Assembly: GCA_964430735.1 (NCBI GenBank)
Contig: CAYSFB010000002.1
Coordinates: forward strand, 7,390-71,389
Reading direction: 5' to 3'
Length of the DNA stretch: 64,000 bases
From: an uncultured Planctomycetia bacterium
Lineage (GTDB): Bacteria; Omnitrophota; Gorgyraeia; 2-02-FULL-51-18; JAGOUK01
This document shows, piece after piece, positions 24,045 to 25,048 of this stretch. How positions within the stretch are numbered: the first letter of the stretch is position 1; the number at the start of each line of letters is the position of its first letter. Under the pieces are notes generated by a model. It was not told the DNA's origin. It was given only the letters and a program-made list of their open reading frames with translations, and did not search any database. A program made the position numbers and the translations under genes.

Positions 24045-25027
24045 GAGTTGCGTATCCTTGGATCAGCCCAGCGGTAAGCGAGATCCGCGATCAGGTTGCC
24101 GATCAGCGTGAGCAGCGCGCTCAGCGTGAAGACCGCCATGTACACCGGCATATCCCGCGCCATCACCGCTTCCATCATGAGTTTTCCCATGCCGGGGATC
24201 GAAAAAACCGTTTCCAGGATCACCGATCCGCCGAGCACGCCGGGCACCGACATCCCCAGGATCGTGATGAGCGGCAGCAGTGCGTTTCTCAGCCCATGCC
24301 GGAAAAAAACCGTCCGCGCCGGCAAGCCCTTGGACCATGCGGTTTTCATGTAATCCTGACGGAGCACTTCGGCCATCCCGCTGCGCATGAACCGCGCCAG
24401 GCCCGAAAAGTGCGCCAGCACCGACACCAGCACCGGCAGCGTCAGATGCCAGGCGACGTCCAGCGCCTTTTCCCATCCGCTCATCAGCTCGAAGTCCAAC
24501 GACGTCACCCCCGACACCGGAAACCAGTGCAGATGCACGCCGAAGAACGCCATCGCCGCGATAGCCAGCACAAAGGTCGGCATTGCGAATGCGACGAACG
24601 CAAAAAAAGTCAGGACTTGGTCCTGCCAACGGCCGCTGAACGCCGCTCCGAGAACGCCGATACCCACGGCCAGCGCGACCGTCAGCAACAGAGCGGTCAA
24701 ATTGATCGCCAGCGTTACCGGGATCCGCTCGGCGATCTTTTCCATCACCGGCTGGCCGTCGCGGAACGACCGGCCAAAGTCGAACCGCGCCGCGGCCGAC
24801 GCCCAGCGCGCGTACCGCTCGAGGATCGGCCGGTCCAAGCCGTAGATCTCGCGCAATTTGAGCTTGGCTTCCGCCGACATCTTAGGATTGAGCTGCGCCG
24901 CCATATCGCTCGGATCCCCCGGCGCCAATTGCGTCACTCCAAACGTCATCACGCTGATCCCAAACAAGATCGGCACCATCCACAACACCCGCCGAAATAA
25001 ATAGGGACACACACTAATTATTTTCAT
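24041..25027 (-). CDS. oppB: ABC transporter permease (OppB/DppB-like)
   Basis: 328 aa. The N-terminus (MKIISVCPYLFRRVLWMVPILFGISVMTF) is typical of OppB/DppB. The EAA loop KTAWSKGLPARTVFFRHGLRNALLP is present. Confidence 0.8.
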   Translation of the reverse strand: MKIISVCPYLFRRVLWMVPILFGISVMTFGVTQLAPGDPSDMAAQLNPKMSAEAKLKLREIYGLDRPILERYARWASAAARFDFGRSFRDGQPVMEKIAERIPVTLAINLTALLLTVALAVGIGVLGAAFSGRWQDQVLTFFAFVAFAMPTFVLAIAAMAFFGVHLHWFPVSGVTSLDFELMSGWEKALDVAWHLTLPVLVSVLAHFSGLARFMRSGMAEVLRQDYMKTAWSKGLPARTVFFRHGLRNALLPLITILGMSVPGVLGGSVILETVFSIPGMGKLMMEAVMARDMPVYMAVFTLSALLTLIGNLIADLAYRWADPRIRNS

Positions 25028-25048
25028 AAGAATCGGTGTGTGTCCCTA
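25002..25048. repeat. Palindrome TAGGGACACACAC-(21 nt)-GTGTGTGTCCCTA enclosing the oppB start codon
   Basis: Perfect 13-nt arms were read directly. The oppB ATG (25025..25027) lies inside the loop. The oppA stop is at 25059..25061. The element at 43238..43290 shares the AATAGGGACAC core. Confidence 0.65.

Follow-up and report, generated by a model that had tools for sequence, protein, structure and literature searches.

The 64-kb stretch of contig CAYSFB010000002.1 analysed here (the window, a term we use for its whole length) carries on its minus strand a peptide/nickel-type ABC transporter operon, and the junction between the genes for its binding protein (oppA) and first permease (oppB) is occupied by a palindrome at 25002-25048 that has the oppB start codon in its loop. 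The explanation that best covers the data, and which we consider likely as a joint account, is that this hairpin consists of two inverted units, a dimer, of a dispersed palindromic repeat whose core is (A/G)GGGACAC, and that such repeats owe their mobility to, or evolve together with, IS200-like Y1 transposases of the RAYT (repetitive extragenic palindromic (REP)-associated tyrosine transposase) or TIRYT type. As shown by comparison with orthologous operons, a single copy appears to have inserted at the oppA/oppB junction in the common ancestor of the window organism and one related lineage (contig L123). The same comparison shows what probably followed: the old oppB start was displaced, the element's own start codon and 3' arm codons were recruited, OppB thereby gained a 5-residue N-terminal extension, and the palindrome has been retained since, with two compensatory base-pair changes.

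The hairpin and the oppB start codon

The operon and the junction comprise the following features.

25059-26687, minus strand: oppA, SBP_bac_5 binding protein
25059..25061, minus strand: oppA stop TGA, 10 nt ahead of the hairpin stem
25024..25059, minus strand: probable relic of a coupled start, an ATG overlapping the oppA stop (TGATG) that opens an 11-codon mini-ORF (open reading frame), MINIRDTHRFL, running through the 5' arm
25002..25048, minus strand: palindromic repeat dimer; in the mRNA sense, 5' arm 25048-25036, loop 25035-25015, 3' arm 25014-25002
25025..25027, minus strand: oppB start ATG in the apical loop; ATG-AAA and an 8-codon lead before Tyr are found in the window, L123 and L122
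25001..25024, minus strand: eight codons, K-I-I-S-V-C-P-Y, read from the repeat's loop and 3' arm
25010..25012, minus strand: in-frame GTG, an alternative start in the 3' arm that aligns with the ATG of canonical homologues and is not conserved
24995..25001, minus strand: U-rich tail UUUAUUU (6 U of 7) directly 3' of the hairpin, partly encoding Tyr-Leu-Phe
24041..25027, minus strand: oppB-like permease, BPD_transp_1, 328 aa from the loop ATG
23208-24044, minus strand: second permease, BPD_transp_1
22390-23211, minus strand: ABC ATPase
21608-22393, minus strand: ABC ATPase

A preliminary description of this DNA had reported a perfect 13-bp stem with the oppB ATG in its loop and the oppA stop close by, and all three statements hold. 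The plus-strand arms are TAGGGACACACAC (25002-25014) and GTGTGTGTCCCTA (25036-25048), with the 21-nt loop taattattttCATaagaatcg (25015-25035, plus strand) between them. Folded as minus-strand RNA, the segment 25058-24995 reaches -23.7 kcal/mol, as against -8.4 +/- 2.6 for shuffled sequences (z = -6.0). The predicted fold consists of the 13-bp stem, 4 + 2 weak A-U/G-U pairs and a 5-nt apical loop, AUGAA, in which the start codon (25027-25025) would lie. Within the 64 kb this is the second-longest inverted repeat (counting repeats within 80 nt). The 13-mer arm, allowing up to two mismatches, occurs four times where 0.42 occurrences are expected, a count that 0 of 100 shuffles reached. The covariance models of Rfam 15 gave no match anywhere in the window at gathering thresholds, and around the hairpin at E <= 10 there were only chance-level, miRNA-like matches (E >= 0.12). 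Searching the literature with the arm sequences TAGGGACAC and GTGTCCCTA returned nothing but primer and aptamer noise, and a search on palindromic intergenic repeats of Omnitrophica found nothing relevant.

The position of the oppB start was judged against its homologues (7,866 in total, 120 listed, 40 N-termini inspected). Of these 40, nearly all open with M-x-x-[YF]-[LIV]-x-[KR]-R and have lengths of 323-327 aa. The window protein, beginning MKIISVCPYLFRR, is 5 residues longer, such that 5 of its 9 N-terminal codons are extra relative to the canonical M-x-x-Y; the 3' arm of the repeat is translated as S-V-C-P-Y, and the Pfam domain BPD_transp_1_N begins at residue 9. Among the homologues inspected, the extended form M-K-x-x-x-x-x-P-Y was shared only by P0003 on L123 (MKLNSTCPYLLKR, read from its ATG) and P0002 on L122 (MKMNASTPYLLKR). 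Because the column of the canonical ATG in the DNA alignment reads GTG in the window (25012-25010), ACG in L123 and TCG in L122, the loop ATG is the only start common to the three extension-bearing lineages. We weighed the alternatives on this basis, and the loop ATG appears to be the start best supported by comparison, though in-frame alternatives exist. The GTG at 25012 was rejected as the true start, given the ACG and TCG at its position, and is kept only as an alternative or possible second start. Further downstream, GTG 24988, TTG 24985 and ATG 24979 would each cost the protein its conserved Y-x-x-R-R motif, and the 312-aa gene call that begins at ATG 24979 was rejected. Gene prediction differs between Logan contigs of identical DNA, giving 328 aa on L001 and 312 aa on L002, a conflict that a start codon borne by a repeat explains.

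The preliminary description had also placed a ribosome-binding site within the structure, and this part has to be dropped: the 15 nt upstream of the oppB ATG contain no Shine-Dalgarno-like motif (CACACCGATTCTT; the upstream sequence ends ...CACACCGAUUCUU), so no such site is visible in the hairpin. Shine-Dalgarno-like motifs are used by this host elsewhere (for example AAGGAAA, 6 nt ahead of an ATG at 5127), and the canonical oppB starts of relatives are preceded by GAGG/GGAGG. What does lie upstream is the mini-ORF, whose stop TGA overlaps the oppB ATG (ATGA). This TGATG...ATGA arrangement is a probable relic of the old coupled oppB start; that it still relays ribosomes to oppB is speculation.

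Filled and empty sites in the window and its relatives

The gene order tpiA-secG-oppA-B-C-D-F-giant protein is kept in relatives, and their oppA/oppB junctions compare as follows.

L124 (P0006): genes overlap (ATGA), no hairpin
L128 (P0007): genes abut (TAGATG), no hairpin
L125/L126 (P0008): 9-nt spacer, no hairpin
L127 (P0004): 43-nt spacer, no hairpin
L122 (P0002): 3-nt spacer, no hairpin
L123 (P0003): element right after the oppA stop, hairpin present

The hairpin is thus absent from five of the six orthologous operons and common to the window and L123, which are sisters in the OppB tree (the latter as P0003). No significant fold was found at the junction of L122 (z = +0.8) or L125 (z = -0.5). 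At positions 2396-2485, L123 holds 1.5 copies of the element, in the order 5' arm, 3' arm, ATG and second 3' arm, so that its oppB ATG stands between two 3' arms: the junction reads ATAGGGACACGTACTATT-AAATT-AAATAGTACGTGTCCCTAT, then TAAATATTTATG, then a second copy of the 3' arm that runs into the ORF. Over 24 nt (AAATAGTACGTGTCCCTATTTATT) the L123 3' arm is identical to another copy in the window, at 43237-43290, which means that the translated arm is family sequence and not native gene sequence. Identity at third codon positions is low between the window and L123 (0.59-0.64), yet all 9 of 9 positions of the outer arm TAGGGACAC are the same in both. At stem pairs 10 and 11 both partners have changed (G-C to A-U and U-A to C-G), which preserves pairing although one side alters a codon, from Thr to Val. 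In the best fold of L123 (-39 kcal/mol) the 5' arm pairs with the second 3' arm and the ATG is in the loop; in an alternative fold (-30 kcal/mol) the ATG is free. These two mutually exclusive hairpins have the appearance of a possible switch.

Four hairpins with a GGGACAC core occur in the window, and three of them have empty orthologous sites in relatives. Besides the oppA/oppB copy they are as follows.

43237..43290: second family copy, ATAGGGACACGTAC...GTACGTGTCCCTAT, between the convergent tpsB-like and fmt genes
22374..22407, minus strand: GGGGACAC-core hairpin at the oppD/oppF junction, -24 kcal/mol, oppD stop TGA in its loop
5152..5185, minus strand: GGGGACAC-core hairpin, -25 kcal/mol, between thiG and an isocitrate/isopropylmalate-dehydrogenase-family gene

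The likeness of the oppA/oppB stem to the fmt/tpsB palindrome, pointed out in the preliminary description, is partial. Both have (A)TAGGGACAC / GTGTCCCTA(T) and the TATTTATT tail, which recurs in the L123 arm, but their inner stems differ (CACAC versus CGTAC). At the orthologous fmt/tpsB site of L136 (3920-3935), a contig from the same sample as L123, the two stops overlap (GGGTTAGAGG, TTAG) and there is no element; in the window the stops are ~70 nt apart, the 54-nt palindrome included, and no clear target-site duplication is visible relative to L136. The oppD/oppF hairpin reads GGGGACACGTTGGCG-TGA-GCGTCAACATGTCCCC on the minus strand; its 3' arm includes an ATG, and 7 nt past the hairpin comes the likely oppF start (ATGCTGGCA). 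In L124 and L125 these genes overlap (ATGA / GTGA) and the hairpin is missing. Presence and absence at orthologous sites were thus seen for the oppA/oppB, oppD/oppF and fmt/tpsB copies, giving three filled/empty pairs. The hairpin at 5152-5185 is near-identical to the oppD/oppF one (GGGGACACGTTAGCG-agga-CGCTAACATGTCCCC, minus strand); its neighbours are thiG (5199-5990) and the Iso_dh-family gene (4057-5127).

A dispersed repeat family and its probable transposases

We scanned 185,579 species genomes for ATAGGGACAC-N14-44-GTGTCCCTAT and found the palindrome in at least 119 loci of many phyla, where ~17 would be expected by chance if base composition is assumed to be uniform. The arm consensus, AAAATAGGGACAC-a-TCCCATTTTT, is conserved even at positions that the search pattern left open. 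Each consensus arm is itself a small palindrome, the A/T runs at the flanks belong to the palindrome, and the loops vary freely between copies of one genome. Among the matches listed, A/T-flanked copies stood in co-directional (38) or convergent (20) ORF contexts in 58 cases and in divergent contexts in 2, and several metagenome-assembled genomes had 3-7 matches each. The listed hosts are metagenome-assembled genomes of Omnitrophota, Planctomycetota, Atribacterota, Elusimicrobiota, Syntrophales/Desulfobulbales, Nitrospirota, Steroidobacteraceae and Eisenbacteria; the nearest named relatives of the window OppB and Fmt are Omnitrophota assemblies. Counts across phyla need caution because an element with an identical loop recurs in bins of one study labelled 'Patescibacteria' (L069), 'Nitrospirota' (L073) and 'Spirochaetota' (L099); these contigs probably belong to a single organism and were mis-binned. 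The 119 listed loci contain 27 extra half-sites versus 25.6 expected, from which it follows that units occur essentially only as pairs or beside a transposase. A phage vector for the palindrome was considered and set aside, as IMG/VR held only 2 matches, roughly chance level by a rough estimate. The GTAC-subtype pattern had 0 matches in JGI metagenomes, so no closer relatives were found there.

Two variant arrangements were seen during this survey. L006, from a Gammaproteobacteria metagenome-assembled genome, has three identical 59-nt palindromes (ATAGGGACACCCACC...GGGTGTCCCTAT) at 2550-2828 with an exact 110-nt period; this array has no A/T runs at its flanks and may not belong with the main family. 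Three-unit versions, with one forward and two reverse GGGACACCC, occur at L059 1194-1256, L086 6511-6573 and L120 2633-2695, the first of them directly after a Y1 transposase gene.

When the ORFs of the hairpin loci were clustered all-against-all to find associated genes, one family was found to adjoin the hairpin in 5 loci. It matches Pfam Y1_Tnp (E 1e-14 to 1e-18), and its best NCBIfam match is 'REP-associated tyrosine transposase' (NF047646), at 71-83 bits where the equivalog cut-off is 80, with two of three transposases just under it (71 and 78 bits). Starting in reverse from the transposase, all three homologues looked up, one of them labelled Caldatribacteriota, had a single upstream unit GGGACACATCC(C/T)ATTT, and two of the three also had an inverted unit downstream. 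For 80 metagenome homologues, [AGT]GGGACA[CT] lay within 200 nt upstream in 26, the inverted unit lay downstream in 23, and 18 had both; ~0.02 are expected per flank, and the wrong orientation was seen in only 1-2 loci. The unit was present in 15 of the 19 best metagenome transposase loci, at a fixed 54-62 nt before the transposase start. TTGACA usually comes directly after it (L138-L155 included), so the unit seems to abut the -35 box of the transposase promoter. In L082 (2008-2030) and L132 (2160-2185), the downstream unit and the 3' end of the transposase gene share sequence, and the repeat supplies the last codons and the stop (...ENGMCP*); here too the repeat is translated.

These observations bear on a different kind of mobile element, to which we give scarcely any credence, namely a TA-duplicating miniature inverted-repeat element of IS630 / Tc1-mariner type inserted at the TA of the Tyr4 codon (AAATA|TTT). 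The elements do read ...A-TA-GGGACAC...GTGTCCC-TA-T..., and L125 has AAATATTTATT at the homologous place. Yet when the element and one TA are removed, the relic ATG stays out of frame. The flanking A/T runs are part of the palindrome, loops are wholly different between copies of one genome, the empty site of L136 shows no TA duplication, and the associated gene encodes a Y1 HUH transposase and not a DDE enzyme. We rejected this candidate on these grounds.

REP-RAYT systems were reportedly treated by Nunvar et al. in 2010. A REPIN is defined as two inverted units with a spacer (Bertels & Rainey, PMC3337134), and the present element resembles the REPIN-RAYT system of that paper in its two inverted short palindromic units, variable spacer and long hairpin. 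It also resembles REP/REPIN-RAYT systems in its many extragenic copies and in a cognate Y1 gene flanked by units (here in other genomes), and differs from them in its 5' tag, which is ATAG/TTAG/GGGG rather than an unpaired GTAG, and in transposases of ~220-250 aa. The unpaired GTAG of the REP superfamily (Di Nocera et al. 2013) was not found: the arms start with ATAG or TTAG (paired) or with GGGG. The same paper (PMC3733652) describes RAYT-like 'TIRYT' genes flanked by terminal inverted repeats sharing GGGGWSAS, with dispersed dimers and clusters. As in these TIRtrons, our units flank Y1 genes in inverted orientation at a fixed distance, form dispersed dimers and clusters and occur in several phyla. 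GGGGACAC of the copies at 22374-22407 and 5152-5185 fits GGGGWSAS as stated there, and AGGGACAC of the oppA/oppB and fmt/tpsB copies matches 7/8 of it. The Omnitrophota-like, Atribacterota, Elusimicrobiota, Syntrophales and Steroidobacteraceae hosts, and the extended arm AAAATAGGGACAC-N-TCCCATTTTT, come from the present searches and not from that paper. The oppA/oppB hairpin is probably a transposase-associated palindromic repeat dimer of a kind already known, in a host lineage that is little studied. Its less usual feature is that the repeat carries the start codon of the downstream gene and is partly translated.

A broader proposal is one that we advance only tentatively. In at least six phyla (Omnitrophota, Atribacterota, Planctomycetota, Elusimicrobiota, Desulfobacterota and Gammaproteobacteria), one Y1 (RAYT/TIRYT) clade and its cognate repeat may keep the same recognition core, AAAATAGGGACAC. 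In compact genomes, copies would recurrently break up overlapping gene junctions and be taken into use as start, stop and terminal codons, and the mini-ORF in the window would relay ribosomes from oppA through the hairpin to oppB. REPIN-like systems are usually described as lineage-specific and vertically inherited. If the proposal is true, the shared core would imply that a REPIN-like system either spread horizontally or has been conserved since very ancient times.

Consequences for expression and rival explanations

The preliminary description had expected the hairpin to occlude oppB initiation, and the folding bears out a strong structure: opening -18..+12 around the oppB ATG costs 24.4 kcal/mol, the highest of 16 starts tested, where free-standing starts in the window cost only 3-7 kcal/mol. 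With 31 nt and the stem separating the oppA stop from the oppB start, direct coupling would be lost. By our proposed mechanism, the hairpin would break direct stop-start coupling between oppA and oppB and bury an initiation region that has no Shine-Dalgarno motif, and initiation at oppB would be hairpin-limited and lower. The UUUAUUU tail may add some termination and/or protection of the oppA mRNA 3' end, and the hairpin is probably also a leaky terminator and/or a barrier to 3'-exonucleases. Expression of the permeases and ATPases would then be lowered relative to the binding protein, as with REP sequences in enterobacterial transport operons; high binding-protein and low permease expression is on this analogy plausible.

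Such hairpins have precedents. REP/BIME (bacterial interspersed mosaic element) hairpins lie within the malE-malF and hisJ-hisQ transport operons. REP325 in yjdMN acts as a partial terminator and mRNA stabiliser (bioRxiv 10.64898/2026.03.23.713779), and a review covering earlier work (PMC12306157) describes REP-type hairpins as partial terminators and stabilisers of upstream mRNA. Like the malE-malF and hisJ-hisQ REP and the yjdMN REP325, the present element is a dispersed palindrome directly after a highly expressed first cistron; unlike them, it is not purely intercistronic, as the start codon is in its loop and its 3' arm is translated.

Several points weigh against the repeat explanation or its proposed effect. 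No transposase gene was found in the 64-kb window, so that the RAYT/TIRYT link rests on other genomes, and the window arms are diverged variants, with TTAGGG on one side and CACAC as the inner stem. Conservation of the palindrome could reflect homogenisation of the repeat family at the DNA level, and not selection on the mRNA. The overlapping, coupled oppB starts of relatives have opening costs of ~21 kcal/mol and are about as buried, so that occlusion alone does not prove lower oppB translation; in those starts the terminating ribosome does the unwinding. The TGATG...ATGA mini-ORF could restore coupling. In E. coli, according to PMC12306157, a hairpin less than 16 nt from a stop can lower translation of the upstream gene. 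The present stem, 10 nt past the oppA stop, is inside the range given there; ribosome stalling of this kind, described for terminating ribosomes at REP elements within 15 nt of a stop codon, lowers upstream output, the opposite of high OppA, and is known only from E. coli. Finally, the 21-nt loop and interrupted U-tract are atypical for an efficient intrinsic terminator, and a simple consensus terminator scan did not call the hairpin.

The last two observations bear equally on the idea of a (bidirectional) intrinsic terminator of the ordinary kind, at which a transcript of oppA alone would end while oppBCDF are expressed from a promoter of their own. We regard this as very improbable. It would account for the A-run / stem / T-run look, for the occurrence of the family at gene 3' ends and for the UUUAUUU after a strong stem, and 6 weak pairs partly close the nominal 21-nt loop; a weak promoter-like match also overlaps the hairpin. 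True terminator stems, however, are not conserved across phyla or beside transposase genes. The promoter-like sequence, GGGACA-18-AATAAT, is a 9/12 match of a quality met at chance rate (4 found versus 1.6 expected in 7 kb), its -10 box lies downstream of the ATG, and we rejected it; the 31 nt available hold no other candidate for an oppB promoter.

The preliminary description had presented the hairpin as a dedicated, 'textbook' regulator. A structure evolved in situ for the purpose of setting high OppA against low OppBCDF, its likeness to the other palindrome being incidental, would fit the strong fold, the buried start codon and a position that is the same as that of REP in malE-malF and hisJ-hisQ. 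Against this, the arm is the family consensus found at other window sites and at many loci elsewhere, where it flanks Y1 transposase genes; five of six orthologous operons are without the hairpin, and for 24 nt the L123 arm has the same sequence as an unrelated site in the window. What had been taken for a regulator appears instead to be a copy of a dispersed, transposase-associated repeat whose 3' arm is coding, and we hold the regulator view to be largely refuted by the family evidence and highly unlikely.

Less easily dismissed, though in our judgement still unlikely, is that the repeat is a neutral passenger, i.e. a tolerated insertion at a gene boundary that supplied an in-frame ATG by chance, has no net regulatory effect and persists at the DNA level by self-templated repair, gene conversion or transposase recognition. 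If only harmless insertions survive, copies should be found where gene ends used to overlap, and this is exactly where all three comparable window copies lie. It is the conserved outer core TAGGGACAC that recurs in the transposase-flanking units, and L122 kept the N-terminal extension and lost the hairpin. Nevertheless, a hairpin of -24 kcal/mol around a start without a Shine-Dalgarno motif, 10 nt from a stop, would hardly be silent for translation. The stem also stayed perfect through two double changes, which on one side altered a codon, and L123 likewise keeps its ATG inside its most stable hairpin.

Two further features of the region stand apart from the junction. Just downstream of secG, at 26628-26662 (minus strand), is a perfect 15-bp terminator-like hairpin (AAAAAACGCCGCGAA-N5-TTCGCGGCGTTTTTT, then CTTTTTC), situated within the codons of the OppA lipoprotein signal peptide (...QKTPRILFAAFFLFL...) ~25 nt past the TTG start. 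Its nucleotide sequence is conserved in L122, L123, L124 and L125, and it may serve as a terminator of secG that overlaps oppA or as an attenuator sensitive to translation. The window also has three giant minus-strand ORFs (6794-21484, 30377-39916 and 50796-62396; 4896, 3179 and 3866 aa). Of these, the ORF that follows the opp operon has syntenic counterparts of 4883-5187 aa in relatives and shows weak hydrolase, Glyco_hydro_77 and GDPD matches in precomputed annotation.

Returning to the repeat insertion, its interest is that an operon junction can be rewritten by a selfish palindromic repeat while the gene downstream survives. Here a close-set and probably translationally coupled junction was replaced by a strong hairpin, a new start codon and 5 extra permease residues, which cautions against taking such hairpins for bespoke regulators. 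The oppA/oppB case is a tidy but fairly ordinary instance of repeats reshaping operons. With it, uncultivated Omnitrophota-like lineages join the hosts of RAYT/TIRYT-type repeats, and the biology of mobile DNA gains three clean filled/empty site pairs.

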